Positions 1,790-16,580 of a stretch of DNA of 64,000 bases are shown here, piece after piece. The translations under genes were made by a program, and so were the position numbers. The notes beneath the pieces are model-generated. The model worked only from the letters and a program-made list of their open reading frames with translations. It did not search any database and had not been told where the DNA came from. Location: assembly GCA_051531975.1 (NCBI GenBank), contig JAOPTT010000010.1, positions 96,001-160,000 on the forward strand, in the 5' to 3' direction. The stretch is from Spirochaetaceae bacterium. Its GTDB lineage: Bacteria; Spirochaetota; Spirochaetia; DSM-2461. How positions within the stretch are numbered: position 1 is the first letter of the stretch; every line of letters starts with the position of its first letter.

Positions 1790-2346
1790 ACAAAGCGCTA
1801 ATTAAAAGAACTGTATTTTTTTCAAATGAAGACAATATATCCAATATGGTTCACATAACCCTTCTACCTAAAGATCTTGCATTGTACTGGCAGCGATGTG
1901 GATTAACTGCTGATTTTGGTGCATCCTTTGCATCATTTTGTTTTCCAAAAATATCTGAAGCTAAAAATTCATTATCTGTAATATTAAATGAACTTGTTGA
2001 AAATGCAGTAAAATACAGCTCAGAGAGTAGTAAAAGAATAAAAATAACACTTTGTGATAATGATGGTTTCCTATATTTTGAGGTTGAAAACTATATATCT
2101 GATGAACAAAAAAAGTTATTTATTGATTTCATTGAAAAATTAGAAAGTGCTGAAGATATAAATGACTTTTATACGGAAGCTATGGAAAAGGCTATGACTG
2201 GTGAGGGTTCCGGACTTGGACTATTGACTATTTTAAATGATTATAATGTCGGAATGTCATTTACTTTTAGCAAAAAGCAAGATTTTCCTTCATTCCATAT
2301 AGTAAAACTTCAGGTCAGAATTAATCCGGAGGGCATAATATGTTAA
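1786..2346 (+). CDS. ATP-binding anti-sigma-type kinase (slr1658-like / HATPase_c)
   Basis: NELVENAVKY N-box and GSGLGL G-box. ATG at 1786 overlaps the upstream TGA (ATGA) and follows AAGGAG. Confidence 0.8.
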   Translation: MNKALIKRTVFFSNEDNISNMVHITLLPKDLALYWQRCGLTADFGASFASFCFPKISEAKNSLSVILNELVENAVKYSSESSKRIKITLCDNDGFLYFEVENYISDEQKKLFIDFIEKLESAEDINDFYTEAMEKAMTGEGSGLGLLTILNDYNVGMSFTFSKKQDFPSFHIVKLQVRINPEGIIC

Positions 2347-2687
2347 AAATTGAAGGTGATATCTATTTAGTATGGTATAAAGATAACGACCATATTATAC
2401 ATTTTGAGGGTTCATTAAGGTTATGGGACCCTGGAGAATATGGCAGAATAAAACAGTATATGCTTGATATATATGAACTTGATACTAAAACCCTTTCTAT
2501 AGATTTAACAAAATTAGAGTTTTTAAACAGTTCAGGAATAAGTATGTTGTGCAAATTTGTATTTGATATTAAAAAAGGTAACCAGCTTCCAATAATTATA
2601 ATTGGTAAAAAAGATATATTATGGCAAAGAAAATCTCTGCATAATCTAAAAAAATTATGGGATAAAATTGAGTTAAAGTTAATATAA
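2340..2687 (+). CDS. STAS-like anti-anti-sigma protein (slr1659-like)
   Basis: IDLTKLEFLNSSGI phosphoacceptor motif and WQRKSL. Overlaps the kinase gene. Confidence 0.8.
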   Translation: MLKIEGDIYLVWYKDNDHIIHFEGSLRLWDPGEYGRIKQYMLDIYELDTKTLSIDLTKLEFLNSSGISMLCKFVFDIKKGNQLPIIIIGKKDILWQRKSLHNLKKLWDKIELKLI

Positions 2688-2733: not shown

Positions 2734-4497
2734 TTATGGTAAAGCTGTAAAAAAGTCTGCAGAAACTATATCTCTGTTAATATTTTTAATTAATATATTT
2801 ACAGTTTTACCACTATCAGAAAATATCAATTGCCTATCTGTACCAGAAGGAGTTGTCTGATTAGTAATAATATTGTCTCGTATAGTATCAGATATAATTA
2901 TTCCAGAAATTGTTAGCTTTAATATATCAGTCTCAGCAAGTCTATTAAAATCCCATATAATATCGGTGCTTGAAGATCCAGCATCATCAATTTCAAATAC
3001 AAAAGTATCATCACCATCTAGTCCAAATAGGTCGTCATCTCCACCTTGTCCATCAATTATATCATTTCCTGAACCAACACCATCTAAAGTACCAATCTGG
3101 GAACTAAAAATATTTGATAAGACACCATTAACATAGTCATATAACAGTCCTGAGGAATCTTCCCAAAGTAAAAAATCTGTAGTTCCATCTGTACCATCAC
3201 CACCTTGTCCGTAGCCTCCACTAGCCATATTGTATAATGGTGTACTTATATTTATAGGTTGATTTGAACTATTTAGACCGCCAAAACCGGCACCTCCACC
3301 AGCTCCAAAAGCATTATTTCCAGTTCCACCTAGAGATTGTTCAGTAAAATAACCTGATCCATTATTATATGGAATAGCACTATGCCCACCCCACATTTTA
3401 TCATTTGAAGCAGTTCCACCAATAGGTTTACTTGTAACACCACCATCAAAACCACCAAATAAAGAAGTTCCAGCAGTAGTACTCGATTGAGCACCTCCTC
3501 CACCAGCAAGAAGCCCCCCAATACCACCATTACCTTGTGGGGATGCATTAGAACCGCCGCCACCGCCACCGCCTCCGAAGCCTCCATTAGCTCCATTATA
3601 ATCACCTACACCAAGACCAGAAGTACCATTAAATCCATCACCAAATATTATATCGTTTCCGCTACCACCAAAAATGATATCAGAACCAGAACCTGCTGTT
3701 CCACCAGGAGAGACACGATATTGCTCACCGCCTCCACCTCCACCACTTCCATCTCCGAATATTACATCGTTTCCAGAACTAGCAGTAATAACATCGTCAC
3801 TTCCACCACCATTACCACCAGCGGCATCGCTGCTGTAGTCTGTACTATAATCTCCAGAACCACCACTTCCACTTCCATCACCAGCATAATATCCTATTGC
3901 TGTTCCCCAAATTGAATATAAAATGATGTTATTAGCCGGCATTAAAAATGGTGGTGTTATAACACTCCCATCAGAAGTCAGGGACCAACCACTAAAAAAG
4001 TGACCAGTAAAAGCTATACCTGATCCATCATTTAAAGTTATTTCGGCACCTTCTAAATATGCTGTACTATCAACTGGTAAACTTCCAGTTCCACCATTTA
4101 GATCATATGTAATGCTATATGTATCTATTTCTATAGCTATAGCTGAAACATTAATAATGACATTATTACTTCCAGTACTTATATCAACTGTAGTTTCACC
4201 AGTGTATAACAATACGGATCTATCTAAATTATATAAATTCAATACAAATTTTCGATCAGTTCCTAATAAAACATCTACAGAAATGAACTCAACCTGAGTA
4301 GTTATTGTAATATCATCAAAATCTGATGCAGAAACTATTAATTCATATAAATAAGCATCGTCGGTTATAGCTCTAGATGATGGTAACGTTAAGTTTATAG
4401 TAGAAAATTTAGAATTATTATCAGATGAAAAAAGTTCACAACCTGCTATTAATAATATAAATATTAAAGATACAAAAAAAATCTTTTTCATAATCAC
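2734..4497 (-). CDS. Surface lipoprotein with InlB B-repeat-like domain and Gly-rich RTX-like Ca-binding repeats
   Basis: Lipobox LIAGC. YSITYDLNGGTG...FSGWS...LYSIW repeat unit. GNDVIFGDG, GNDIIFGDG, GNDIIDGQGGDDDLFGLDGDDTFVF nonapeptide-like repeats. Confidence 0.7.
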   Translation of the reverse strand: MIMKKIFFVSLIFILLIAGCELFSSDNNSKFSTINLTLPSSRAITDDAYLYELIVSASDFDDITITTQVEFISVDVLLGTDRKFVLNLYNLDRSVLLYTGETTVDISTGSNNVIINVSAIAIEIDTYSITYDLNGGTGSLPVDSTAYLEGAEITLNDGSGIAFTGHFFSGWSLTSDGSVITPPFLMPANNIILYSIWGTAIGYYAGDGSGSGGSGDYSTDYSSDAAGGNGGGSDDVITASSGNDVIFGDGSGGGGGGEQYRVSPGGTAGSGSDIIFGGSGNDIIFGDGFNGTSGLGVGDYNGANGGFGGGGGGGGSNASPQGNGGIGGLLAGGGGAQSSTTAGTSLFGGFDGGVTSKPIGGTASNDKMWGGHSAIPYNNGSGYFTEQSLGGTGNNAFGAGGGAGFGGLNSSNQPINISTPLYNMASGGYGQGGDGTDGTTDFLLWEDSSGLLYDYVNGVLSNIFSSQIGTLDGVGSGNDIIDGQGGDDDLFGLDGDDTFVFEIDDAGSSSTDIIWDFNRLAETDILKLTISGIIISDTIRDNIITNQTTPSGTDRQLIFSDSGKTVNILIKNINRDIVSADFFTALP

Positions 4498-4720
4498 CTC
4501 TTATTGGAATACTAAATTTATTAGTTTATATCAAATAATTATAGATCTTTATAATAGATTGTCTAGTGTTAAGAATGATAATAAGCACTAATACCCCACT
4601 CATAGAGTCTGAATATTAATGTTTAGACAATATTATTAATAAATACATCCTAATATACAGAAATTGATATACTATAATGAATCTTACACATATAATAACA
4701 TGTAATTATTAGGAGATATC

Positions 4721-5422
4721 ATGGATTTCTTTAAGTGTGAACAAGAGATACTTAACAATGCAGAAGAATTCTTAACCCTTGAGAATAAACCGTCTGACGC
4801 ATATACAGATGAGTACCTAAAGTTATATCGTGGTTTTAAGAAGCTATTAAAAGAGTCAAAAAAACTTATCTCATTATCAGATATTACCCATAAACAGTTA
4901 AAAGATAGTGAGGAAAAGTTAACAGAATTATCTATAAGAGATCCATTAACAGGTTTACTAAATAGACGTGGAGTTTATCAGTGGCTTGATGATGAATTGG
5001 TTAGACTTAAACGAAACAATACAACTTTGGCTATTTTTATTATGGATATAGACTTTTTTAAAGATGTAAATGATACATATGGCCATACTGCCGGGGATTA
5101 TGCATTACAGCAACTAGCTAACCTATATCATGACTCTGTAAGAGAACAAGATTGTATTGGTCGTTGGGGTGGAGAAGAGTTTATATTAGTACTTCCTAAT
5201 ACCGATGCCACTGGAGCTTTTAATCTTGGTGAGAAACTTAGAAAAAGAGTGGAAGATTTTATAATCATATATGATAATAAACGTATAGAATTAAAGATAT
5301 CATTAGGTGGTTGTAGTTTAGATGAAAATACAACTCTAGATGACTGTCTAAAGTGTGCTGATAATGCACTTTATAAAAGTAAAGCGGAGGGAAGAAATAA
5401 GGTGACTATGCATGAATCTTGA
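4721..5422 (+). CDS. Diguanylate cyclase, SiaD-like (coiled coil + GGDEF)
   Basis: DPLTGLLNRR, DIDFFKDVNDTYGH, RxxD I-site (REQD) and GGEEF. AGGAG RBS. Adjacent to siaB/siaC/siaA-like genes. Confidence 0.9.
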   Translation: MDFFKCEQEILNNAEEFLTLENKPSDAYTDEYLKLYRGFKKLLKESKKLISLSDITHKQLKDSEEKLTELSIRDPLTGLLNRRGVYQWLDDELVRLKRNNTTLAIFIMDIDFFKDVNDTYGHTAGDYALQQLANLYHDSVREQDCIGRWGGEEFILVLPNTDATGAFNLGEKLRKRVEDFIIIYDNKRIELKISLGGCSLDENTTLDDCLKCADNALYKSKAEGRNKVTMHES

Positions 5423-5960
5423 AAGTTTATCCAATATCTATCAACTATTAAATGAAGATGGAATAATAATTAGTTATCAGGGTGTTTTTCATCAAGAAAT
5501 TATTGAAGAGATTACTTCTATAATTAATCTTAAGCTTTCTTCTGATCCCGGAACAAAAAATAAGCATAAATATCTTACAATGTTTGTTGAATTATCCCAG
5601 AATATTTTAAGATACTCATCAGATTCTCTATTGAACAGTGAAGGGAAACAGATTAGTACAGGTATTATACTAGTTGGAACTAAAGATGATAAAATATTTG
5701 TTATTAGTGGGAATCCTATTAGTCCAGAATATAGAGATGATATTGATGAAAAGTTAAAAACACTAACAACCTTATCTGTAGAAGATCTGAATATGGTATA
5801 TAAACAGCAACTAAAAACAAAAGACCGACATAACTTTAATAAAAGTGCAGGTTTAGGATTGGTAGATATTATAAGAAAAGCGGATAAATCCGAATATAAT
5901 ATACATGACCAATCCCCTGGAAAACCTTTTTTAACAATAAAAGTAGAGTATAAGCTTTAA
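5412..5960 (+). CDS. siaB: SiaB family protein kinase
   Basis: YQGVFHQEII, FVELSQNILRYS, ISGNPI and SAGLGLVDIIRK motifs. Confidence 0.85.
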   Translation: MNLESLSNIYQLLNEDGIIISYQGVFHQEIIEEITSIINLKLSSDPGTKNKHKYLTMFVELSQNILRYSSDSLLNSEGKQISTGIILVGTKDDKIFVISGNPISPEYRDDIDEKLKTLTTLSVEDLNMVYKQQLKTKDRHNFNKSAGLGLVDIIRKADKSEYNIHDQSPGKPFLTIKVEYKL

Positions 5961-5969
5961 TCTATAAAT

Positions 5970-6341
5970 TTAATCTATAACTTTAATATTATAGGGGAAT
6001 TGGAAATCTTCCAGTAGATCTTCCCCTGTCTCTTTTGCTACTTCGTTATCAGCATTATATAACCAGTTTACAGATACTTTTTTACCTTTTTTAAAAGCCT
6101 CTTCTAATATATCAAAAAGATAAAACATAGCTTTAGTACTACTAGTATTAAGATACAATAACCGGACATTCAGTTCAAAAATTATACCTTCCTTCTCTAA
6201 ATATTCCTCTACCCAGGTTATTACTGGTTCATAAAAATTACTTGAGTTTTCTGGATATGATTGTCCATCAATAGTAAACAGTCTGTTTTCTTCGTCAAAA
6301 AGTATTCGTGGTGTCGATTTTCCTACTGCTATATCTATCAT
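5970..6341 (-). CDS. siaC: SiaC family (DUF1987) STAS-like phosphoprotein
   Basis: TPRILFD, GQSYPENSSNFYEP, YLNTSSTK (phospho-Thr motif) and VNWLY. Confidence 0.9.
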   Translation of the reverse strand: MIDIAVGKSTPRILFDEENRLFTIDGQSYPENSSNFYEPVITWVEEYLEKEGIIFELNVRLLYLNTSSTKAMFYLFDILEEAFKKGKKVSVNWLYNADNEVAKETGEDLLEDFQFPYNIKVID

Positions 6342-8374
6342 TTGTCTTCCTTCAATTTAAACCCCATAAGAGTAATATCATCTCTCTGACTATAGCCATC
6401 TTGAAAGTCTGCTAAATCTTTTTGGAGGGTATCTAAGTAACTATTCATGTTTTTACCAGTAGCTTTTTTAAGAGCTGCTAAATATCTTTTCCACCCAAAA
6501 CTAAACTCCTTTTCTCCACCACTTTGGTCTATATAACCATCAGTAGTAAAGTGAAAAGACATTCCCCTCTGGATATCTATTTGTTGTGTTGTATATACAT
6601 AATCATACTTTGATCTTTTATAACCAACACCTTGTTTGTCACCTTTATATTCAACTATGTCCCCATTTAAAAGGGTAAATAGTCTAATTTTTGATCCTGA
6701 GAATTGTAGAGATTTTGTATCACTATTATAGATACAAAGCCCAATATCAAGACCATCATCTTTTATTTCATATATATTATCCTGGGACAGTACTTGTTTA
6801 AGTAGTCTATTAAGATTAGATAATATAACACCTGGATCATCACTATTTATATGCTGTACAATTCTCTCTAACTGAGATTTTGCAGACATTGTTAATAGCG
6901 CCCCTGGTACACCATGACCAGTACAATCTATAACAGCGGCAATAAAACCATTATCTTTTTTCATTATCCAGTAAAAATCACCACCTACAACATCTTTTGG
7001 TTTCCAGTCAAGATAATGATCAAAAAATATCTCATCTAGTTGTGCCTTAGATGGTAAGATAGAGTTCTGAATCAAAGCAGCATACTCTATACTCTGCATT
7101 ACTTCCCTGTTCTTAACTTTTAACTCTTTAGTACGATCTTCAACTTTATGTTCCAAAGTTTCATTTAGTTCAAGGTTCACACTATAAGATTTTTCTAAAG
7201 AGGTATGAGTCTGGGCAAAACGTTTACCTAATATTACAGTAAAAGTTATAACCAAGAGGAAAAAACCTTCACCAATAAACGGTGATTTAGCTAATATACC
7301 CATGAAACATAACATACTGTATACAAAAGAAACTGACAGTAAAAGAATACCCACAAGCATAGTTTTTGAGTAAAAAAACTTAAGTTTAATAGCTCTAATT
7401 GAGACAAAAACGAGGTAAAATACTACTAAGATGTAGCTAAAGTTGAAACCATTATATAAATATTTACCAAAATTAAAAATTTGACCTGTAAAGAGATATT
7501 CAACTAAAATGAAAGAAGTCATGAACAAATATAATCCAATAAATATTTTTGCTCCAAGTTTTAGTTTTAGGTTATAAAACGAATGGATGAATAAAATAGG
7601 GAACATATACATATTTACTCCACCAACAAATGTTATAACCCAATATCCCCATGCTTTATCAATTAAATAATAGGCTAGACCATAATATCCAATGGTAAAT
7701 AATGCTACAGATAAACTGAAACCTGAGATGTATAGGTTGTATCGTTCTTGTTTTCTATATAAATACATTATAAAGAAATATAGAGCAAGGAAAAGACTAA
7801 CAAATGAGATAGCTGAATTTTTAATAACATATATTATCCAGTTTTGCTGTAATTCTTTATAATTACCTATCTTAACAAAACCACTAAAACCACCAACAGA
7901 ACTAAAACTACCAGCTTTAATTAATAGTGAATTTTCTCCAGTGTTTATAAGGCTATTACTAAGTTTTAAAGCTATAGGTTTGTGACCAAATTTATTATAT
8001 CCATTATATATTAAATTGTTATTAAGGTATAACTCATATCCTCCATAACTTAATGGAATGTATACCCCAAGTTCTTCATTTATTACATCAGGACTAAGGA
8101 TAAAAGAAATTTGATACCATGCATCCCCATAATGAGTTGCTAATTCTGGAATTGAATACTTCCATGGACTTGCTGTGGATATAGAAAACCAGTCATCATA
8201 GTTTATATTATCCATTTCATTATATTCTTTATCTTCTATTGAGAAGTTCCACTCAGTATTTAAACTGTAGACTTTATTATAGTCATCAACTAGTAGTGGT
8301 TTTACACTTTCTGCATATGTAGACAATGAGCATAAAGTTATTAGTAATATTATAACATGATTTCTGATTTTCAT
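6338..8374 (-). CDS. SiaA-like sensor phosphatase: extracellular jelly-roll + 7TM-DISM-like + PP2C/SpoIIE
   Basis: Signal peptide, SLNTEWNF...GDAWYQISF beta domain and about 7 TM helices. SIEYAALIQNSILP, PKDVVGGDFYW, DCTGHGVPGA, TDGYIDQ and QRDDIT motifs. Confidence 0.88.
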   Translation of the reverse strand: MKIRNHVIILLITLCSLSTYAESVKPLLVDDYNKVYSLNTEWNFSIEDKEYNEMDNINYDDWFSISTASPWKYSIPELATHYGDAWYQISFILSPDVINEELGVYIPLSYGGYELYLNNNLIYNGYNKFGHKPIALKLSNSLINTGENSLLIKAGSFSSVGGFSGFVKIGNYKELQQNWIIYVIKNSAISFVSLFLALYFFIMYLYRKQERYNLYISGFSLSVALFTIGYYGLAYYLIDKAWGYWVITFVGGVNMYMFPILFIHSFYNLKLKLGAKIFIGLYLFMTSFILVEYLFTGQIFNFGKYLYNGFNFSYILVVFYLVFVSIRAIKLKFFYSKTMLVGILLLSVSFVYSMLCFMGILAKSPFIGEGFFLLVITFTVILGKRFAQTHTSLEKSYSVNLELNETLEHKVEDRTKELKVKNREVMQSIEYAALIQNSILPSKAQLDEIFFDHYLDWKPKDVVGGDFYWIMKKDNGFIAAVIDCTGHGVPGALLTMSAKSQLERIVQHINSDDPGVILSNLNRLLKQVLSQDNIYEIKDDGLDIGLCIYNSDTKSLQFSGSKIRLFTLLNGDIVEYKGDKQGVGYKRSKYDYVYTTQQIDIQRGMSFHFTTDGYIDQSGGEKEFSFGWKRYLAALKKATGKNMNSYLDTLQKDLADFQDGYSQRDDITLMGFKLKEDK

Positions 8375-8390
8375 TGTAACTTCCTATTTT

Positions 8391-8597
8391 TTAGTAATAA
8401 AACCCTATTTTTGTAGTCTTCATATCTTCTTTGTTATCTACAAGTTTTTTACTATCATCTTCAGAGACATCATAACCTTTATCCTGAAACCAAGATGCAA
8501 CTGTTTTGTGGTCACTACTATCAACAACTTTGAGTAATTCTTCACCAATAGTGGTGTCTTTTGCAGCATCTGCAATAAAATCAATAAAATTTTTCAT
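8391..8597 (-). CDS. Putative RiPP precursor 1, Nif11-like leader, C-terminus KIGFYY
   Basis: 68 aa with GAAGGA RBS and its own promoter. Paralogous to 9235..9441. Helical F-x-x-x-x-x-x-D/N leader pattern and GY[D/S][V/I] motif resemble Nif11-type leaders. Confidence 0.7.
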   Translation of the reverse strand: MKNFIDFIADAAKDTTIGEELLKVVDSSDHKTVASWFQDKGYDVSEDDSKKLVDNKEDMKTTKIGFYY

Positions 8598-8634
8598 TCA
8601 AATTCCTTCATTTTTGATTTAATACGGTTTTTTA

Positions 8635-8663
8635 ATTTTAAGAGATATTAGACTTACTGTCAA
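8635..8663 (-). promoter_or_regulatory. Sigma70-type promoter of precursor 1 - siaA - siaC
   Basis: Minus strand TTGACA (8663-8658), 17-nt spacer, TAAAAT (8640-8635). Confidence 0.75.
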
Positions 8664-8682
8664 ACTTTTAATTGAATACTTA

Positions 8683-9207
8683 TTATTTGATATATATCCC
8701 ATACATTATGAAATCAACTGAAGAATTACCATAGGATATCCATGCAAAACCTTTTATCCCCCACAACCTACCCCATGAGTTTTTAATAAGCCATGCCTGC
8801 TTTTCATCATCATACCCAATTACTGTTACCGCATGACCACCAAATGATTTTCCAAATCTATGTCTGTATATACCTTTTCTATAAAATATTAGATCTAATC
8901 TGAAGTTCAGTATGGATAATAATGGACCTTTGCTATCAAGCCACTCTTTCATTTTTATCTGTTTATCCAGAGCTGTATAATCTGTTATTATTTTTTTATC
9001 CTTTAATAAAGTAAGAGTCTGATAGATATTATTTGCACTAGTAGGATATTTTTTAAGAAACTGTCTTTCCGATATTAGGCAGTATTTACCTGTTTTTTTA
9101 AATTTTAAAATCTCAAGGTTTGCTAAAACTGCATAGACTATACATACAGATCTGAAGCCTTGATTTTTTATTGGTAGATCTGGAAATTTATTATTAAGAA
9201 TAGGCAT
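8683..9207 (-). CDS. Minimal papain-like (C1A) cysteine peptidase
   Basis: NQGFRSVC (Gln/Cys), GGHAV (His) and KNSWG (Asn). No signal peptide or propeptide. Confidence 0.8.
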
Positions 9208-9234
9208 AGTAAACTCCCAGATTTATATTTTGGA

Positions 9235-9441
9235 TTAGTAATATAACCCTATTTTTTGTGATGCTATAGAGTCTTTATTCATCATGATCTTTTCACACTC
9301 ATCTTGGTTGATTGAATAACCCTGATTCTCAAACCATGTTGAAATCTCTGTGATGTTTGAACCCACAATCTTGTTGTTTAATTCTGTTGCCATACTCTCG
9401 TTTTTTGCTGCGTCTGCAACAAAATCAATAAAATTTTTCAT
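9235..9441 (-). CDS. Putative RiPP precursor 2, Nif11-like leader, C-terminus KIGLYY
   Basis: 68 aa with AAGGAG RBS. Starts MKNFIDFVADAAK and ends KIGLYY, like 8391..8597. Confidence 0.7.
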   Translation of the reverse strand: MKNFIDFVADAAKNESMATELNNKIVGSNITEISTWFENQGYSINQDECEKIMMNKDSIASQKIGLYY

Positions 9442-9470
9442 ATTTACTCCTTTGTTATTTTTCTTCTATG

Positions 9471-9499
9471 ATATTAGTGTTGTAACTCTTTACTGTCAA
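9471..9499 (-). promoter_or_regulatory. Sigma70-type promoter of precursor 2 - peptidase
   Basis: Minus strand TTGACA (9499-9494), 17-nt spacer, TAATAT (9476-9471). Confidence 0.7.
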
Positions 9500-9516
9500 G
9501 GAATTTAAAATAGTTG

Positions 9517-9552
9517 ATAACCCTATAACCCTATAACCCTATAACCCTATAA
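9517..9552. repeat. 8-bp tandem repeat (ATAACCCT) x4.5
   Basis: Four perfect units at 9517-9548 plus ATAA, in the divergent intergenic region. Confidence 0.95.
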
Positions 9553-9606
9553 TTATACACATAAAAGTCTAAAATTAGTGTCTTAATAAAAAAAAATTCT
9601 TTTTCA

Positions 9607-9635
9607 TTGTCAAATATATTTTAATACTCTAACAT
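9607..9635 (+). promoter_or_regulatory. Putative promoter of the radical SAM operon (probably leaderless mRNA)
   Basis: TTGTCA, 17-nt spacer, TAACAT. ATG lies 7 nt downstream and there is no SD. Confidence 0.5.
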
Positions 9636-9642
9636 TCTAACA

Positions 9643-10656
9643 ATGTTATCTATAGAAGTAACAACAAAATGTAATTTACGATGTATTAATTGTTTTGCCC
9701 ATGATTCCTCCCATGTATTTGAACATCTTGGACTTAAGAAAGCAGAAGAGATAGCTCTTGAGGGTCGAGTTTTAGGTTATAAATCTATCAGTCTTACAGG
9801 TGGTGAGACCTTTTTGTGGCCTTATATACTCGGTTTTTTAACTTACCTTAAAAGTATTGGATATGAAACAATATTGATAAATAGTAACTTACACCTATTA
9901 ACTGAAGAGTTATGTAACAAACTGTCTAAATTTACTGATCTGTTGACCATTAGTTGTAGTATTAATGGATTTAAAGATGAACACGAAATTGTTAGAGGGA
10001 TTGGAAGTTACGATAAAGTAATTACAGGATTAAAAAATGCTATAACGTACGGTTTAAAAATGATTGTATATACAGTCGTTAATAGAAGAAACTTATATGA
10101 TATTCCTAAATTTACTGAGTGGTTATTTAAACAGTTCCCAGAAATTATAGATCTAGTTTTTATACAGTTAAGAGGAATAGACGACGGTTACTACCAGGTA
10201 GAAGACCTTAAACTAGAACCAAAAGATTTAATTGAGTTTGTTAAAATGATCAGCTATTTAAGTCTTGGTGGATATAATGTAAGCATATTAGAGAACTCAT
10301 TATCTACTGTTGTTGCAGAGATGCTTGGTTTTAAGTGGTATCCTAAGAGTCCAGAGATATCTAGAGATGGCAAAATAGTTGTAATGCAAACTGGGGTTAT
10401 TACAGATAATCACTCCAGTTTAGAAATATTAGGGAACTATAACAATCAATCCCTTAAAGATGTATTAGAATCAAAAGAATATAGAGAATTATGTGTAGAC
10501 GAGTCTAAATTATGTATAGGTTGTAAATTTATTTCAATATGTAGAAAGTCCGGTAAAGTGAGACCATCAGATATGTATCATAATACTGGAGACAGTGATT
10601 ATTACTACTGTCAAAAAGTATTAAGTCAGATAACCCAAGGAGTTATAAATGAATGA
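9643..10656 (+). CDS. Radical SAM enzyme with partial SPASM-like C-terminus
   Basis: CNLRCINC (CX3CX2C), LTGGE and C-terminal CIGCKFISIC...YYYC. Confidence 0.88.
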   Translation: MLSIEVTTKCNLRCINCFAHDSSHVFEHLGLKKAEEIALEGRVLGYKSISLTGGETFLWPYILGFLTYLKSIGYETILINSNLHLLTEELCNKLSKFTDLLTISCSINGFKDEHEIVRGIGSYDKVITGLKNAITYGLKMIVYTVVNRRNLYDIPKFTEWLFKQFPEIIDLVFIQLRGIDDGYYQVEDLKLEPKDLIEFVKMISYLSLGGYNVSILENSLSTVVAEMLGFKWYPKSPEISRDGKIVVMQTGVITDNHSSLEILGNYNNQSLKDVLESKEYRELCVDESKLCIGCKFISICRKSGKVRPSDMYHNTGDSDYYYCQKVLSQITQGVINE

Positions 10657-12397
10657 TTTATTGTTAATTGTACCACCCTTTTTTTCCCCTGAATTACAGT
10701 CATTAGGACTACACAATTTACAGGCATGCGCTAGAAAAGAGGGATTCAGTACAGATATAAAATATGTTAACTTTGAATTAGCTAGACGTTTAGGAGATAA
10801 CTTTAAAAACTTCTGTGTTATGAACTATTTCCAATTAGGAGAGAGGATTTTTGCAAAAGCCGCTTGGGGGGATCTAGTTGGTGAGCAATTTTATGACGGA
10901 TTATATGATTTTTCTGACATATTTGACTGGGATAGGAATCCTGTTAAATTCTTTGATGAACAGAATCAATTAACAATAGCAGAGCTAAAAAAGTGTGAAA
11001 AAATAGCTACGTCCTGGCTTTTAGACCTTGAAGAACAATTTAAAGATCTACCTTACAAATATGTTGGTATTTCTAGCTCCTATGAACAGATAAATGCTGG
11101 CATAGCTTTATTTAAAATAATTAAACGGTTAAACCCAGAAATTATAACCTTTATTGGGGGATTTAACTGTGAAGAAGAGATGGCTAAAGGCATAGCATCT
11201 TTAGATAGTGATAGACAGTATATAGATTACATCTTCAGTGGAGAGAGCGAGATAAGCCTAATCAACTTTTTAAAAGATGGTGGATCAAAAAATAGAATTA
11301 TTCGAAGTGAACTTTTACAAGATATGAATATAATCCCGGATCTAGACTACTCAGACTATTTTAACCAGCTAAATTTTAAGACAGAGCATAAATTATTGGT
11401 TATGGAGCATAGCCGTGGCTGCTGGTGGGGAGAAAAAACCCAATGCAAATTCTGTGGAGTTGGACGTCTACAATTTAGAAAAAAGAATTTTGATCGGATT
11501 AAAACAGAGTTAGAAAATGCTAAAAAGTGGGGTATTAAGAGATTGCATATGGCAGATTTAGCTATGCCTGATTCACATTTAACAGACCTTCTTCCCCACC
11601 TCATAGATGAGGATTATGGCTGGGAGATATATTTTGAACAGAAGGTATCCCTTAACTATGAGCAGTTAAAACTCTTAAAGAAATCTGGAGTAAATGAAAT
11701 TCAACCTGGAATCGAAACCCTTAGCGACAATGTATTAAAAAAGATGTCTAAGGGTACTTCAATGAGACAAAATTTAACATTTCTACGTGATGGAACATCT
11801 CTGGGGTTAGAAGTCTTATGGAATATAGTGTGGGGAATTCCTGGAGAGACAATAGAAGATTATAGAGAGATGAATAAATTAATACCTCTACTAGTCCATC
11901 TTATGCCACCTGTAGGGATATTCCATATGACGTTGGTACGTTTTAGTCCATATTTTAATAATCCGAAACAGTATGGGATAACAAATATTAAACCTATAAA
12001 ATCATATTACGATGTATATCCAGATTTTGTAGATATAGACAATTTGGCTATGATATTTAAGTGTGAACATAACGAAGAAAACCTAAATGATAAAACAGAG
12101 TTAATAAAATTTTTAGAACTATTGGAGAGTTGGAACTCAAGGTGGGAGAATAACCTATTTACTCCAAAACTTGAGATAACTAAACTAGGTGATGGCACTG
12201 TAATACTGCTTGATACTCGGGGAATAGAGGGTTGTGAAGTTAAGAGAGAACTAAGTCCAGTAGAAATAGAATTATTATTATATCCTGCTATTTATACTAA
12301 TAGCGATATGGAGAATATGTTTATAGAAAACAAAGTAGCCATACTAGATGATGGATTTTTTATACCACTTGTTATAATTACAGAGGAGATGAGATAA
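10649..12397 (+). CDS. RiPP maturation radical SAM protein (B12-binding class B C-methyltransferase type, TIGR03975/PoyC-like)
   Basis: N-terminal LIVPPF...SLGLHNLQA and GGFNCE cobalamin-type domain. SRGCWWGEKTQCKFC (CX7CX2C), IQPGIETLS, WNIVWGIPGET and LVRFSPYF. Confidence 0.88.
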   Translation: MNDLLLIVPPFFSPELQSLGLHNLQACARKEGFSTDIKYVNFELARRLGDNFKNFCVMNYFQLGERIFAKAAWGDLVGEQFYDGLYDFSDIFDWDRNPVKFFDEQNQLTIAELKKCEKIATSWLLDLEEQFKDLPYKYVGISSSYEQINAGIALFKIIKRLNPEIITFIGGFNCEEEMAKGIASLDSDRQYIDYIFSGESEISLINFLKDGGSKNRIIRSELLQDMNIIPDLDYSDYFNQLNFKTEHKLLVMEHSRGCWWGEKTQCKFCGVGRLQFRKKNFDRIKTELENAKKWGIKRLHMADLAMPDSHLTDLLPHLIDEDYGWEIYFEQKVSLNYEQLKLLKKSGVNEIQPGIETLSDNVLKKMSKGTSMRQNLTFLRDGTSLGLEVLWNIVWGIPGETIEDYREMNKLIPLLVHLMPPVGIFHMTLVRFSPYFNNPKQYGITNIKPIKSYYDVYPDFVDIDNLAMIFKCEHNEENLNDKTELIKFLELLESWNSRWENNLFTPKLEITKLGDGTVILLDTRGIEGCEVKRELSPVEIELLLYPAIYTNSDMENMFIENKVAILDDGFFIPLVIITEEMR

Positions 12398-13056
12398 TGG
12401 AAAAAGTTGTAAATGATAAAAAAATATGGGATGAGATATACGAAAAAGAGAACTTTACACCTGGATGGGGAAGCCCAGGTTTGGATAATAATATAGTTAC
12501 CTATGTAAAAGCTTATATAAATGAGTACAAACTTAAATCATTGTCCATATTAGATATTGGTTGTGGTAATGGTAGAAATTCCTTTGTAAAAGAGGAGCTG
12601 GAGAAAGATGGAGTTATTGTAGATTATACAGGTGCTGATTTTTCAGAGAAAGCTCTGACATACTGTAGGGAAACTTATACAGATAAAGAGTTTATACATC
12701 TTGATATTACTGATAATAACCTTCCTTTAAAAGAGAGTTATGATGTTATTATTGACTGTGGTTGTTTCCACGCTATTCCACCTGAAGTTCGTATTAAATA
12801 CATAGATAATGTAAAAAAACATTGCTCAGATAGTAGTTTATTAATTATTGGTGCATGGTACCGGGAAGAGAAACATACAGAAGTAGATAAACCTTCATAC
12901 TTTCCCTACCTCTATTTAGACGAATGGTTTCTTAATAGAAGTGATATGACCCAGATATTTAATAATAAGTTTAATGTTATATCTGAGCTTGTTGATAACA
13001 GGATATATGAAGGTTTAAACAAAGGCTTCGCATATTTTAGATTAAGACTTTGTTAA
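12397..13056 (+). CDS. Class I SAM-dependent methyltransferase
   Basis: ILDIGCGNGRN, GADFS and YDVIIDCGCFH. Translationally coupled (TAATG) to the rSAM gene. Confidence 0.9.
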   Translation: MEKVVNDKKIWDEIYEKENFTPGWGSPGLDNNIVTYVKAYINEYKLKSLSILDIGCGNGRNSFVKEELEKDGVIVDYTGADFSEKALTYCRETYTDKEFIHLDITDNNLPLKESYDVIIDCGCFHAIPPEVRIKYIDNVKKHCSDSSLLIIGAWYREEKHTEVDKPSYFPYLYLDEWFLNRSDMTQIFNNKFNVISELVDNRIYEGLNKGFAYFRLRLC

Positions 13057-13947
13057 TGGTGGTATAACTCCGGTTATACCCCACATCTCAGAATCTACAC
13101 CACACTCTCCATACTTAATCCAGAAGTAACCACTCTCTCCCCAGCTTTCACCCCAGGAGTTTTTACATAACCAAGCCTCTTTATCATCTGAATAACCAAC
13201 TATAGTTATGCAGTGACCTCCAAGTTCTGGTCCTAATATAGGGCTATAGATTCCTTCTCCATAAAAAAGAAAGTCCGCTCTTAAACTCATAGCACCGATA
13301 AGTGGGCCATTAGTAAATATCCAGCTTTTCATTTCCTCTTCAGTAGTTAGTGTTTTATAACCTTTTATTTTTGTAACCCTATTCTGCCATCCCGTCGACA
13401 GAGCTTTATCCTTATCGTCAGTATCGTAGGGAAACTCTTTTTCAGTTACAACTCCAGTATTAACTAGATAGTTTAGAGCATCTTCCACAGGCCAACCTGT
13501 TTTACAGTTATGGGTACTCGGTGTATCTTCTGGAGAAAACCCAGGGCTCTTAAAAAACAACTGACCTTCAGAGAGATTTATATCCACATTATGTTCAATT
13601 TTTGCCATACTCTCTGTAACTGCTAATGAACCAAAGGCTGCACAGGAACTGCAAAACCCCTGGTTTTTAACAGTTGCCATATAATTTTTACCCTTTTTAT
13701 TTAACCAGTTAAAACTTTTAGGGTAGTCTACTGTAATTATTTTAGTATCCTTCAGATGTTTAATATGGTTTTCCCTAGAAATTTCTACCCTTTCATCTAA
13801 TGATAACGTACTTTCTGTGGTTCTAAATCCAGCTAAACTCTTTAACTCTTCAAAAAGTATACCTGTAAAAAGGTTTAATGAAGGTGTCCACTGGGGTTTC
13901 TCTAACTTTGATAATTCTTTAAAAAATAACTCGTCTAATATACTCAT
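13042..13947 (-). CDS. Papain-like (C1A) cysteine peptidase, cytoplasmic
   Basis: VKNQGFCSSCAAF, NLSEGQL, GGHCITIVGY and KNSWGESWGESGYFWIKYG. No signal peptide. Confidence 0.92.
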   Translation of the reverse strand: MSILDELFFKELSKLEKPQWTPSLNLFTGILFEELKSLAGFRTTESTLSLDERVEISRENHIKHLKDTKIITVDYPKSFNWLNKKGKNYMATVKNQGFCSSCAAFGSLAVTESMAKIEHNVDINLSEGQLFFKSPGFSPEDTPSTHNCKTGWPVEDALNYLVNTGVVTEKEFPYDTDDKDKALSTGWQNRVTKIKGYKTLTTEEEMKSWIFTNGPLIGAMSLRADFLFYGEGIYSPILGPELGGHCITIVGYSDDKEAWLCKNSWGESWGESGYFWIKYGECGVDSEMWGITGVIPPLTKS

Positions 13948-14028
13948 GCTGGGATTATACTACGGTTATTAATAATCTAGGTATAATTTTATGGGTAATC
14001 GATTTATGTTTGTATTATAATATTAATT

Positions 14029-14868
14029 ATGAAGAAATATATAATAATATTGTCACTATTAATTACACTTTTTTCATGTTCCAAATTTAGTAAACAACTG
14101 TATCAAGAACATGAAATGGTATTGGTTGAACCTGGTTCCTTTATTATGGGCTCAGATTCTGGGAAAGAGAACGAAAAGCCAGCCCACAAAGTTAAAATAA
14201 CAAGAGCATATTATATAGGTGTTTATGAAGTCACCTTTAATCAGTACGATGCTTATACACTGGAAACTAAAAGGAAATCTGCAGACCCAACTATTAAAGA
14301 TAGAGGGCAAAGACCTGTAATGAGTGTGGACTGGATACAAGCTGTAACCTACTGTAACTGGTTAAGTAAAAAAGAGGGATTCACCCCTTGTTATATAGTA
14401 AAAGGTGTAAAAACAACATGTAATTTTGAAGCCGATGGTTATAGATTACCAACTGAAGCAGAGTGGGAATTTGCAGCCTCTGGGGGGAATAAAAGCAAAG
14501 GATTTATATATTCCGGAAGCAATAATGTTGATGAAGTAGGATGGTATGAAAAAAACTCAAATAACGATTTTTATAATATAGGACTTAAGAAACCTAACGA
14601 ATTAGGACTGTACGATATGTCAGGGAACATGTGGGAATGGTGTTGGGATTATTGGGATAAAGATTATTATAAATATTCACCATCCATAGATCCAACAGGG
14701 CCATTAACAATACCGAAACAGGACATGGCATATAATGTGGAAAAATCCAGGCGTAGCTCCAGATGGTTAAATACAGAATTTTATCTGAGAGTTTTTAACC
14801 GTTCAGCAGACTTCATAAATTATGAGGGAGATAATGGAATACGTCTTGTAAGAAGTAAAGTTAATTAA
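14029..14868 (+). CDS. FGE-sulfatase (SUMF1-fold) domain lipoprotein
   Basis: Lipobox LFSC. GSFIMGS, YEVTFNQY, YRLPTEAEWEFAA and NELGLYDMSGNMWEWCWD. Confidence 0.88.
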   Translation: MKKYIIILSLLITLFSCSKFSKQLYQEHEMVLVEPGSFIMGSDSGKENEKPAHKVKITRAYYIGVYEVTFNQYDAYTLETKRKSADPTIKDRGQRPVMSVDWIQAVTYCNWLSKKEGFTPCYIVKGVKTTCNFEADGYRLPTEAEWEFAASGGNKSKGFIYSGSNNVDEVGWYEKNSNNDFYNIGLKKPNELGLYDMSGNMWEWCWDYWDKDYYKYSPSIDPTGPLTIPKQDMAYNVEKSRRSSRWLNTEFYLRVFNRSADFINYEGDNGIRLVRSKVN

Positions 14869-14983
14869 CAATTTATATAATATCCTTTATAGATATAATT
14901 AGATTAATGAAATACAATTCATCTTGGATATCTCACTTAAGATGCTCCGGTTTTGCCTAGTAATTAATATTAACGGAGAAATA

Positions 14984-16174
14984 ATGAAAAATAGAAATTT
15001 ATGGTTCTTAATAGCTACACAATGCTTTTTTATGAGTGCTAATATGATGTTTACAACACTTGCACCAATGTTAGGAAAATCGCTACTAATAAATGTTAGT
15101 TATGCTACCCTGCCCATGGCTATGAGTATGTTATCAATGCTTATTTTCTCTTTCCCCGTAAGTATATGGATGGGGAAAAAAGGACGGGGACCAGCTTTTA
15201 AAACAGGCTTACTATCTAATATGTTAGCCGCAGTTATATTTTTTATAGCACTCCAGTCTAATCAATTTTATCTATTATTAATAGGTTCTGTTTTTTTTGG
15301 ATTCTCAATATCCACTGCAAATTTCTATAGATTTGCAGCTATGGAACTAGTACCTGAAAAAGATCAATCTAAAGCTATATCCATGGTTATGTCTGTTGGA
15401 ATAGTTGCTGCTTTAGTCGGCCCCAATTTAGGTTCTGTTACTAAAAATCTAATTTTTGATATTGATTTCTCCGCATCAGTACTTACTTTTATTCCACTAT
15501 CATTAATGAGTCTAATAATGGTTTCAAATGTAAAATGGCCGGCAATAAAAGAATTAAAAAAAGAAAACGATGATATAACCACCTTAATTGCTCCCCTTGA
15601 TATATGGAAATCTGGAACTTGGAAGCCAATTTTTGGGGCCATGGTATCATTTGGAATAATGGTTTTAATTATGAGTGCTACACCCCTACATATGTCAGCT
15701 TCTAAATATGCATTTTCTGATACTGCTTGGGTAATTCAATGGCATGTATTAGGTATGTTTGCCCCATCTTTTTTCCTTGGTTGGATAATAAAGAAGATAG
15801 GTTTAAATAGACTGCTTATATTAGGAGTAATATTTTTAATCCTCTCTATAGCTGTTAATTTAATTTCTGATAGTAGAGCCCTTTTAACTATTGGATTATT
15901 ATTCTTAGGCATAGGTTGGAACTTCCTATTTCTTGGTTCTAGTAAGTGGTTAATGAATTGTATAATACACTTAAATGTAAAGGAAAGATCTAGAGTTCAA
16001 GGTATAAACGAAGTATTAGTATACGGCTTATCATCTGCTGCAACTCTTAGTTCCGGCTGGATAATAAATAAACTAGGGTGGCAAGTACTAAATATAGTTG
16101 CACTTCCTATTTTAATACTATTATTAGGTGTATTAATTCTAAATACTTTGAAAACCAAAAAGTTAATCTTATAA
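14984..16174 (+). CDS. MFS transporter
   Basis: About 12 TM segments with NFYRFAAME and IQWHVLGMFAPSFF. ATG at 14984 follows GGAG. Confidence 0.88.
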   Translation: MKNRNLWFLIATQCFFMSANMMFTTLAPMLGKSLLINVSYATLPMAMSMLSMLIFSFPVSIWMGKKGRGPAFKTGLLSNMLAAVIFFIALQSNQFYLLLIGSVFFGFSISTANFYRFAAMELVPEKDQSKAISMVMSVGIVAALVGPNLGSVTKNLIFDIDFSASVLTFIPLSLMSLIMVSNVKWPAIKELKKENDDITTLIAPLDIWKSGTWKPIFGAMVSFGIMVLIMSATPLHMSASKYAFSDTAWVIQWHVLGMFAPSFFLGWIIKKIGLNRLLILGVIFLILSIAVNLISDSRALLTIGLLFLGIGWNFLFLGSSKWLMNCIIHLNVKERSRVQGINEVLVYGLSSAATLSSGWIINKLGWQVLNIVALPILILLLGVLILNTLKTKKLIL

Positions 16175-16250
16175 AATTATTCCCATATAAATTAGCAACT
16201 TTAAGTAAAATGATTGTTTTCCCTATAGATTGAACCTAAACTTTTTATAT

Positions 16251-16580
16251 ATGGACAGTGAAATAGATGAAATTCTGGAAGTTGAAAGAAAAGCAAAATC
16301 AATAATAGATGATGCAAGAGCGAAATCCCTCAAAATCAGGTCTAAAGACGATATAGAGATTAGTAACAGAACAAAAAGTATTAAAGATGAAATTAATAGT
16401 TATCTGAAAACAGAATCAAAAAATGCAAAAATAGAAAGTTCCAAGGAACATCAATTAAAAATAGAAGAGGTTGAATCCACTATTCTATTTGATACAGTAC
16501 CTAAAAAAATAAAAGATAAATTAATAAATGATATAATATCTATAATTCTTGATACCACATTTAAGATGGTGGAGAGATGA
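16251..16580 (+). CDS. V/A-type ATPase peripheral stalk subunit G/H-like
   Basis: Charged coiled coil (EILEVERKAKSIIDDAR). First gene of the ATPase operon. Start is uncertain. Confidence 0.6.
   Translation: MDSEIDEILEVERKAKSIIDDARAKSLKIRSKDDIEISNRTKSIKDEINSYLKTESKNAKIESSKEHQLKIEEVESTILFDTVPKKIKDKLINDIISIILDTTFKMVER

Follow-up and report, generated by a model that had tools for sequence, protein, structure and literature searches.

A Nif11-like peptide precursor paired with a 7TMR-DISM receptor in Spirochaetota, and its proposed coupling to a Sia-type c-di-GMP switch

In the ComQXPA quorum-sensing system, a short ribosomally made precursor gives rise to a pheromone from its C-terminal residues, which contain an invariant aromatic residue (an internal Trp) in an otherwise hypervariable core. 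The precursor gene lies directly 5' of the gene encoding a multi-pass membrane receptor, the histidine kinase ComP, which acts with ComA; a gene for an enzyme with the polyprenyl synthase fold is adjacent, and a dedicated exporter or peptidase is not part of the system. The comparison made here is one of commonly known organization and parts, not of sequences. In Pseudomonas aeruginosa, the sia genes form one co-directional operon. Peptides that are ribosomally made and modified after translation (RiPPs) with a Nif11 leader have a Gly-Gly cleavage site and a C39 peptidase/ATP-binding cassette (ABC) exporter. We analysed a locus at positions 4721 to 16174 of a stretch of 64,000 nucleotides (the window), which is part of contig C10 of a free-living spirochaete of the phylum Spirochaetota (G000, 5.46 Mb) and is AT-rich (G+C ~30%). 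The locus combines genes for short Nif11-like precursors, radical S-adenosylmethionine (SAM) enzymes, a membrane sensor phosphatase and a Sia-type switch for cyclic diguanosine monophosphate (c-di-GMP). We propose that it encodes a RiPP pheromone together with its membrane receptor, built from parts other than those of ComQXPA and feeding into the Sia-type switch, a reading that, judged from gene content and conservation, we hold to be on balance probable. The genes on which it rests, with domains assigned by Pfam and NCBIfam models each against its own cut-off, are the following.

4721..5422, plus strand: siaD-like diguanylate cyclase, 233 amino acids (Pfam GGDEF, E 7.8e-43)
5412..5960, plus strand: siaB-family protein kinase (DUF6272), 182 amino acids (NF038262 and Pfam DUF6272)
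5970..6341, minus strand: siaC phosphoprotein, 123 amino acids (Pfam SiaC)
6338..8374, minus strand: sensor phosphatase, 678 amino acids, with signal peptide, ectodomain, 7TMR-DISM_7TM and SpoIIE/PP2C parts (Pfam)
8391..8597, minus strand: putative precursor 1, 68 amino acids, C-terminus KIGFYY (open reading frame and family relatives)
8635..8663, minus strand: promoter-like site TTGACA-17-TAAAAT, 5' of precursor 1 (consensus match only)
9235..9441, minus strand: putative precursor 2, 68 amino acids, C-terminus KIGLYY (open reading frame)
9499..9471: promoter-like site belonging to precursor 2 (promoter scan)
9643..10656, plus strand: radical SAM maturase, twitch/SPASM-like, 337 amino acids (Pfam Radical_SAM)
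10649..12397, plus strand: B12-binding radical SAM C-methyltransferase (TIGR03975), 582 amino acids (NCBIfam)
12397..13056, plus strand: SAM-dependent methyltransferase, 219 amino acids (Pfam Methyltransf_25, _31, _12 and _11)

A sequence-only reading of this DNA had first drawn attention to the locus. Every open reading frame (ORF) that it listed is present where it had been placed and carries the domain claimed for it, and the 16 nt that it gave between the stop codon of precursor 1 and the start of the sensor gene were verified; no terminator-like site lies in between. Sensor and siaC reading frames (6338-8374 and 5970-6341) overlap. The promoter claimed ahead of precursor 1 corresponds to the best promoter-like site in a scan of positions 4400-16400, matching 11 of 12 consensus positions. 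Taken alone this site counts for little, because the whole scan yields fewer sites than shuffled sequence. A TTGAC(A) box is found 5' of the ATG in all eight family precursors, at ~55-75 nt as judged by eye.

A link between peptide and sensor genes in other genomes, on which the sequence-only reading had staked its proposal, is kept both in the window's family and in the phylum, which strongly supports that peptide and sensor are coupled in function. The family sample consisted of 38 genomes for the precursor and SiaC, 25 of which were searched for the B12 radical SAM enzyme. The precursor profile matched seven of the 38 genomes at E <= 3e-31, two further matches (E ~0.005) with in-frame stops being disregarded. 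SiaC was found in six of these seven genomes and in none of the 31 others; the remaining one has a completeness of 74%, and the precursor stands at the end of its contig. Six other genomes, belonging to three genera, encode full-length orthologues of the B12 radical SAM enzyme (39-58% identity), and the genomes positive for this enzyme are the same seven that are positive for the precursor. Co-occurrence of precursors with radical SAM, papain-type (C1) peptidase and sia genes had been put forward as a check; it was borne out within the family for the radical SAM and sia genes and not consistently for the C1 peptidases.

The gene order around the precursor is equally informative. A block of eight genes, consisting of siaD, siaB, siaC, the siaA-like sensor, the precursor, the radical SAM maturase, the B12 radical SAM enzyme and the methyltransferase, is kept in three further loci from two genera (L013, L014 and L015). 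L013 has the order of the window (siaD-siaB, convergent siaC-siaA-precursor, divergent radical SAM-B12 radical SAM-methyltransferase). In L014 and L015, which belong to another genus, the unit precursor-siaA-siaC is directed towards siaB-siaD; a C1 peptidase gene follows and, on the opposite strand, methyltransferase-B12 radical SAM-radical SAM. Flanking genes differ: a sugar ABC transporter and a GntR regulator on one side and substrate-binding protein, PII and Amt genes on the other in L013, an EAL-GGDEF protein versus PNPOx and a glycyl-radical enzyme in L014, and a Flg_new repeat protein versus DctP and a histidine kinase in L015. That the eight genes were inherited together although their order was rearranged and their flanks changed is a strong argument for their forming one functional unit. 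The precursor relatives lie directly 5' of the sensor orthologue in L013, L014, L015 and L016, with precursor-sensor gaps of 9-62 nt across family loci. SiaB is present in all four complete family loci, siaD orthologues adjoin siaB in L013, L014 and L015, and the methyltransferase gene follows that of the B12 radical SAM enzyme in the window, L002, L013, L014 and L015. L002, L016 and L017 are short contigs, each with part of the block. A narrow-pattern locus search with the precursor alignment returned four loci, none of them new. In another genome, a second partial B12 radical SAM gene (35% identity, C-terminal part) lies beside a C1 gene (G014:C504:975-2709), which hints at a second cassette.

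Across the phylum, a narrow profile built from family precursors only matched 47 of the 401 sampled genomes, six of them by weak matches inside long ORFs. The 40 best precursor loci from outside the family were compared as two sets of 20. In 37 of the 40, a Nif11-like precursor of roughly 70 amino acids is encoded on the same strand directly 5' of a 7TMR-DISM receptor gene (18/20 in the first set, the exceptions being L071, at a contig end, and L073; 19/20 in the second, with L095 as the exception). For 17 non-family loci the distance between the two ORFs was measured, and in 15 of them it came to between -41 and 154 nt. The other two, with 346 and 572 nt, reflect ORF-calling artefacts: tblastn aligns the receptor from a point much nearer the precursor. 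The receptors share the ectodomain and the 7TMR-DISM part and differ in their output parts. A direct PP2C output is found in Leptospira-type loci, which have OmpL1 porin genes nearby, and HisKA-HATPase-REC-PP2C hybrids in most other loci; in L059 and L069 a histidine kinase-receiver (HK-REC) arrangement is joined to a kinase domain of the LytS type. Such a common sensor part with varied outputs is the pattern expected of a ligand and its receptor. A homologue of the radical SAM maturase is encoded within the stretch compared in 15/20 loci of the first set (31-41% identity) and 10/20 of the second, and some loci contain other tailoring genes, encoding flavin adenine dinucleotide (FAD) monooxygenases, CMAS-like methyltransferases and further B12-domain proteins. 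Homologues of SiaC, SiaB and TIGR03975 were not found in the first 20 non-family loci. Of the system as originally drawn, the precursor, the 7TMR-DISM receptor (mostly with PP2C) and the radical SAM enzyme form the conserved unit, and the Sia switch, the B12 radical SAM enzyme and the methyltransferase occur only in the window's family. The Sia switch is, on this gene distribution, predicted to be a lineage-specific output of a larger peptide-receptor cassette.

These data also bear on the explanation that the RiPP genes and the sia genes stand together by chance or through a recent insertion and are unlinked in function. It is true that two genes at the margin of the interval, for an FGE-fold lipoprotein and for a major facilitator superfamily (MFS) transporter, are not kept as neighbours. 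The comparative data contradict such an origin for the remainder, since the block has been kept in two genera between different flanks and in rearranged order, SiaC is confined to precursor-positive family genomes and the precursor-receptor pairing recurs in other families; we consider it very improbable.

All four protein families of the SiaABCD switch are present in the window, and in this respect the assignment made earlier stands; none of the four proteins attains the NCBI equivalog cut-off, and the match of the sensor to SiaA is C-terminal only. For SiaD, the best NCBIfam match is NF038266 (SiaD), with 190.9 bits under an equivalog cut-off of 290. SiaB scores 135.2 bits with NF038262 (SiaB_fam_kinase, cut-off 85) and 70.7 bits with the equivalog NF038264, under 225. 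SiaC scores 133.2 bits with its Pfam model (cut-off 24.5) and 131.3 bits with the equivalog NF038265, under 150. It aligns to the solved SiaC of P. aeruginosa (6kko, 6k4f; E 5e-25) with an identical phospho-Thr motif, RLLYLNTSS; Thr66 is the counterpart of the single Thr in this motif, which is invariant across five family SiaC orthologues. By these features the Sia module looks intact. The sensor scores 241.8 bits with NF038263 (SiaA, cut-off 700), the match being confined to model positions 384-657, the C-terminal ~270 residues containing the PP2C region. Unlike the P. aeruginosa operon, the sia genes here are organized as two convergent pairs, with the precursor first in the siaA-siaC unit. 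The architecture of the sensor differs as well: SiaA of P. aeruginosa is described as having two membrane-spanning regions, HAMP and PP2C (PMC7647112), and here an ectodomain and a 7TMR-DISM seven-transmembrane (7TM) part precede PP2C.

The ectodomain shows a faint likeness to the sugar-binding jelly roll Glyco_hydro_2_N (E 0.0011). It is the most divergent part of five family receptors, with a mean pairwise identity of 0.30 compared to 0.44 for the 7TM part, 0.52 for the linker and 0.45 for PP2C. A complex prediction for ectodomain residues 22-180 with the precursor gave a score of 0.28 against a mark of 0.32 and carries no weight either way. Elsewhere in G000, an orphan SiaC paralogue (C12:61524-61892, 57% identity) is encoded between ABC-transporter genes and a LacI-type gene, without siaA or siaB nearby, and a second 7TMR-DISM-PP2C protein (C2:555356-557440, 32% identity) has no precursor upstream.

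The two precursors of the window are 41% identical to each other. As to their description as Nif11-type, the UniRef names of their orthologues are either 'hypothetical protein' or 'Nif11 domain/family protein', and in the window PF07862 (Nif11) gives 19.5 and 14.4 bits, under the gathering score of 23.8. A Gly-Gly motif was not found in the precursors; there is instead one conserved Gly 2-4 residues from the end. The receptor-linked precursors all end in Tyr, apart from a few members of the window's family type that end in Trp. For this family type, 46 relatives were found and 38 retrieved, of which 36 end in Tyr, one in Trp and one is truncated. They have a well conserved leader and a core of the form [KNRST]-[LVI]-G-x-x-(P)-Y/W, in which the 2-3 positions separating the conserved Gly from the final Tyr are hypervariable (examples are FIY, WTY, LYPY, YGY and VIW). 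In several loci 2-3 tandem precursors precede one receptor gene.

A profile built from 22 precursors and searched against 1.84 billion cluster representatives matched 362 clusters at E <= 0.001, of which 114 reached E <= 1e-10. Among the best 150 of the 362 clusters, 146 have representatives of <=95 amino acids, and 138 of these end in Tyr and two in Trp. Apart from the terminal Tyr, no core position is conserved among these 140 Tyr- or Trp-terminal representatives. The motif [LVIM]-G-x(1-3) precedes the terminus in 28/140, and a Lys or Arg lies within four residues of the terminal Tyr/Trp in 68/140. With the latter count, a universal Lys/Arg-Tyr crosslink is unlikely as the fixed modification. 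The invariant terminus points to the terminal Tyr itself as, most likely, the target of modification; the reaction cannot be named from sequence and could be an oxidative decarboxylation like that of MftC, the formation of a crosslink, or a priming step for alkylation.

The precursor searches gave several observations of their own. Two of the matched representatives (P0153 and P0179) end in a repeated ...AYTAYTAY, which suggests multi-core or iterative variants. Four giant proteins, P0071 (3487 amino acids), P0072 (2027 amino acids), P0190 and P0210, match the leader profile 13, 9, 5 and 5 times; because they match in separate stretches, the leader-like domain also exists as a tandem repeat in large proteins. 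A peptide subtype ending in ...MEEAIP[FY]LFLT[RH] (L073:9972-10142, L088:7626-7892 and L095:6050-6367) is never receptor-linked. In the window, a perfect 8-nt tandem repeat (ATAACCCT x 4.5, or AGGGTTAT on the minus strand) lies at 9517-9552, with the promoter-like site of precursor 2 on one side and the divergently oriented radical SAM gene on the other. It is unique in the window and resembles the codons for IGLY at the terminus of precursor 2. It was considered as a conserved operator and rejected, as it is not present 5' of the precursors in other family loci.

The radical SAM maturase has a CX3CX2C motif (C10, C14 and C17) that is invariant in 18 orthologues. The only further invariant Cys residues in these are C291, C294, C300 and C323 near the C-terminus (CX2CX5C...C). 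A full seven-Cys SPASM motif holds two auxiliary clusters; four C-terminal Cys are enough for one. The Pfam SPASM match is weak (E 0.0069), and the best NCBIfam match is WgkB, with 66 bits against a cut-off of 650, accompanied by weak likeness to many SPASM maturases. Neither the precursors nor this enzyme matched any curated NCBIfam family above its cut-off. A word-based protein search with the enzyme gave 24 matches, all to close relatives; a search of PDB sequences gave viperins only, by way of the radical SAM core, and is uninformative on chemistry; and a search of the ESM Atlas yielded radical SAM clusters of a generic kind, among which one is commonest in Thermodesulfobacteriota. The assignment of the second enzyme is firmer, with 430.3 bits for TIGR03975 (cut-off 281.85). 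The CX7CX2C motif earlier attributed to it was located at residues 258-269 (CWWGEKTQCKFC) and is conserved in seven of seven orthologues.

The long Nif11-like leader and the TIGR03975 enzyme are shared with proteusin-type RiPPs with Nif11/NHLP leaders. In contrast to those, the core comprises only 2-6 residues, a Gly-Gly site is lacking, and the peptide is coupled to a receptor; C39 peptidase/ABC exporter domains were not found by Pfam and NCBIfam among the ORFs of 4721-16174. A Tyr-terminal ribosomal precursor, a radical SAM enzyme with C-terminal Fe-S Cys residues and a tiny product derived from the last residues are likewise known from mycofactocin (MftA/MftC), which is a cofactor. From mycofactocin the locus differs by its hypervariable core, by a link to a receptor and not to dehydrogenases, and in that homologues of MftB, D, E or F were not seen. 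Small peptides modified by radical SAM enzymes and linked to quorum sensing are also found among streptococcal streptide and WgkB-type RiPPs. Those RiPPs are described as an output of quorum sensing through a cytoplasmic Rgg receptor (Rgg/SHP), and here the receptor is in the membrane.

These parallels raise the explanation that the product has another role, as an antimicrobial, a mycofactocin-like cofactor or a metal/redox agent, and that the receptor senses something else and co-regulates or responds to its production. The streptococcal RiPPs are a precedent, being described as under quorum sensing control without being the signal, and the Tyr terminus with a radical SAM/SPASM enzyme recalls mycofactocin, the MftC model TIGR03962 giving 46 bits against a cut-off of 265. 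The outputs of the receptors, on the other hand, are PP2C, partner-switch and c-di-GMP modules and not transcription factors that drive biosynthetic genes, and it is the precursor that heads the transcription unit of the receptor, the enzymes being in some cases kilobases off or on the opposite side. An invariant core would be the expectation for a cofactor, and clustering of all ORFs of 27 loci revealed no recurrent dehydrogenase partners or immunity genes. We regard a product with such a role as rather improbable.

The same clustering of the 27 loci revealed a further recurrent family, of ~300-335 amino acids beside the radical SAM gene in 15/27 loci that has no Pfam match above cut-off. Its members share the invariant motifs LHSxDDHLxD and WRLLDDxQDxxxD, and four of the 15 give weak polyprenyl_synt matches (best E 0.0015). 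An AlphaFold2 model (mean predicted local distance difference test, pLDDT, 89.3) gave 23 PDB matches at E <= 0.001, and the best ones are all trans-polyprenyl diphosphate synthases, with template-modelling (TM) scores up to 0.67. ComQ, by which the pheromone ComX is prenylated in Bacillus subtilis, is an enzyme of this type, and we refer to the family as ComQ-like. It is present in 60 of the 401 phylum genomes, and by comparison of the lists 36 of these are among the 47 precursor-positive genomes. The ComQ-like gene was not found in G000 by tblastn or by a search with a hidden Markov model (HMM). In L017, a member of the window's family, the ComQ-like gene and the B12 radical SAM gene occur together. 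In five Leptospira-type loci (L078, L079, L082, L086 and L087) there is a reduced module of FGE, 7TMR-DISM-PP2C, ComQ-like and a divergent precursor-like ORF (LRTFLDFIH...) that is not Tyr-terminal, and a radical SAM gene is lacking. In L065 and L070 the reduced module adjoins, in back-to-back orientation, a Tyr-type precursor together with a receptor and a radical SAM gene.

Taken together, we favour a RiPP-derived autoinducer that would be sensed by the co-transcribed receptor in a ComQXPA-like manner and would gate c-di-GMP in this lineage; we give it a somewhat better than even chance of being correct. The reasons are the position of the precursor as first gene in the receptor unit, the invariant residue among hypervariable neighbours, the interchangeable outputs, and enzymes of types that make small lipophilic products. 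In outline, the Nif11-like precursor of ~70 amino acids with its C-terminal Tyr would be co-transcribed with the 7TMR-DISM receptor, and the radical SAM/SPASM-like enzyme would modify the last few residues at or around the terminal Tyr. In the window's family the TIGR03975 enzyme is then predicted to C-methylate the peptide and the SAM-dependent methyltransferase to methylate the product further; in most other families the ComQ-like enzyme would take the place of these two. Close to the conserved [LVI]-Gly the leader may be cleaved off, a step for which the cytoplasmic papain-type peptidases are the probable enzymes here. A small hydrophobic product would leave the cell and be sensed by the ectodomain or the 7TM part of the receptor. 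We infer that ligand binding would shift the phosphorylation of SiaC at its conserved Thr, set by the SiaA-like PP2C versus the SiaB kinase, and that unphosphorylated SiaC would activate the SiaD cyclase and raise c-di-GMP.

In its logic ComQXPA is the closest analogue, and homology to it would be confined to the ComQ-like fold. The short precursor with an invariant aromatic residue in a hypervariable core, the gene order of precursor and membrane receptor, and the absence of a dedicated exporter or peptidase are shared; the adjacent gene for an enzyme of the polyprenyl synthase fold is shared only by the wider family and not by the window. The invariant residue is here the C-terminal Tyr and not an internal Trp, and in place of ComP and ComA the window has a 7TMR-DISM receptor with direct PP2C output and many relatives have HK-REC-PP2C. 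The Nif11-like leader, the radical SAM/SPASM-like enzyme, the B12 radical SAM enzyme with its methyltransferase, and the diderm spirochaete host also set the window apart from ComQXPA.

The remaining genes of the locus, among them candidates for cleavage and export, are the following.

8683..9207, minus strand: short papain-family (C1) peptidase, 174 amino acids (Pfam Peptidase_C1, E 7.7e-18)
13042..13947, minus strand: papain-family (C1) peptidase, 301 amino acids, without signal peptide (Pfam Peptidase_C1, E 6.3e-42)
14029..14868, plus strand: FGE-sulfatase-fold lipoprotein, 279 amino acids, lipobox-like N-terminus, membership doubtful (Pfam FGE-sulfatase)
14924..16174, plus strand: MFS transporter, 416 amino acids, membership doubtful (Pfam MFS_1)

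The 301-residue peptidase has the catalytic motifs QGFCSSC, GGHCITIVGY and KNSWG and is a candidate leader peptidase. The 174-residue copy is 32% identical to it and retains the Cys, His and Asn motifs despite its shortening. C1 orthologues adjoin the cassette in L014 and L015, and a C1 peptidase was not found anywhere in G001, the genome of L013, which is 96% complete. In that genome a clostripain-family (C11) peptidase encoded ~3 kb past the methyltransferase (L013:15408-16595, minus strand) could be an alternative leader peptidase. The FGE lipoprotein and the MFS transporter were rejected as core parts, their homologues being absent from L013, L014 and L015. The inclusion of these two proteins and of the C1 peptidases in the system, as the sequence-only reading had it, was thus not upheld. 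G000 has several FGE paralogues, and an FGE protein recurs beside a second 7TMR-DISM-PP2C receptor in Leptospira-type loci.

A number of points weigh against a secreted signal with a cognate receptor. No peptidase is conserved, C1 being absent from G001 and from the non-family loci, and no exporter is conserved either, since no transporter family is shared across the 27 clustered loci and the MFS transporter is specific to the window. There are 24 ComQ-like-positive genomes without a match to the narrow precursor profile. With a broader profile, a precursor-like ORF was found nearby in seven of the ten examined among them; in the six Leptospira-type ones this ORF is not Tyr-terminal and has no radical SAM gene beside it. 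As the window has no ComQ-like gene, the ComQXPA analogy rests on its relatives. The co-occurrence counts within the family are not independent events, because the genomes are related, and the fast divergence of the receptor ectodomain lends weak support, because ectodomains commonly outpace cytoplasmic domains. The precursor may moreover act as a protein, because most of it is a conserved, possibly folded Nif11-like domain and only 2-6 residues vary.

The last point leads to the principal alternative, in which the precursor is retained as a small intracellular protein with a Nif11 domain and partners or regulates the receptor, for instance at PP2C or at the cytoplasmic face of the 7TM part. 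Modification of the C-terminal Tyr tail by the radical SAM enzyme would then take place on the retained protein and form a protein-level switch instead of a diffusible signal. About 60 of the 68 residues are conserved and leader-like, with the sub-threshold Nif11 match described above, and the tight pairing with the receptor suits a protein partner equally well; the lack of a conserved exporter and leader peptidase also agrees with retention. Hypervariable residues beside an invariant Tyr, together with a fastest-evolving ectodomain, better fit a specificity pair that meets outside the cell, and arrays of 2-3 tandem precursors per receptor are what secreted peptide families typically show. Among RiPPs, leaders of the long Nif11 type are in addition normal, and a prenyl synthase fold, a B12 C-methylase, methyltransferases and FAD monooxygenases are makers of small lipophilic products. 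We consider a retained precursor unlikely, if worth serious attention, and keep to the secreted, receptor-sensed peptide as the preferred reading.

The locus is bounded on one side by a V-type ATPase operon, which starts at ~16230. On the other side, the siaD gene is adjoined by a gene (2734-4497, minus strand) for a 587-residue protein in which Flg_new (Listeria-Bacteroides repeat) and RTX nonapeptide repeats were recognized. The cassette in L015 is likewise bordered by a Flg_new/Big_5 repeat protein (L015:227-2527, minus strand). Such a neighbour is present in only two of the four complete loci and could be a surface protein under c-di-GMP control. Just upstream of the siaD region is a second partner-switch-like trio (356-2687, plus strand), composed of a 477-residue PP2C/SpoIIE protein (356-1789), a 188-residue DUF6272/HATPase_c SiaB-like kinase (1780-2346) and a 115-residue protein (2340-2687) with a weak STAS match (E 4.5e-4).

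Peptide quorum sensing is regarded as mainly a Gram-positive trait, and we know of no RiPP-receptor system of this kind in Spirochaetota. To our knowledge, the ligands of 7TMR-DISM sensors and the natural input of SiaABCD are largely unknown. A search of titles and abstracts found no published coupling of a RiPP with Sia, of a peptide with 7TMR-DISM or of Nif11 with ComQ, subscription journals being thinly covered so that a prior description is possible; the sequence-only reading had likewise known of no described RiPP-Sia coupling. For the phylum as a whole we propose, more tentatively, a quorum-sensing-like class in which a Nif11-leader RiPP with an enzyme-modified C-terminal Tyr would be the cognate ligand of the 7TMR-DISM receptor, a possibility that we place a little short of even. 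Under the same reserve, the radical SAM step would be followed by prenylation or by C-methylation depending on the lineage, and the core would have diversified in a pherotype-like manner.

If true, 7TMR-DISM sensors would have a ligand class assigned to them on genetic grounds for the first time, and Spirochaetota, a diderm phylum, their first family of peptide autoinducers. The genetically hard-wired pair provides a concrete candidate ligand for 7TMR-DISM receptors and for the SiaABCD switch, and it points to new small RiPP chemistry on a C-terminal Tyr, carried out by a radical SAM enzyme with one auxiliary cluster together with a B12 C-methylase or a ComQ-like enzyme. Spirochaeta isovalerica and Thiospirochaeta perfilievii are named organisms among the precursor matches, and the hypothesis may be open to bench work if strains are culturable. 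Under the same reading, cell density or kin recognition would set c-di-GMP and aggregation in the lineage of the window. More widely, the findings suggest that free-living and some Leptospira-type spirochaetes may use secreted peptide-derived signals to control c-di-GMP, aggregation and other PP2C-gated outputs.

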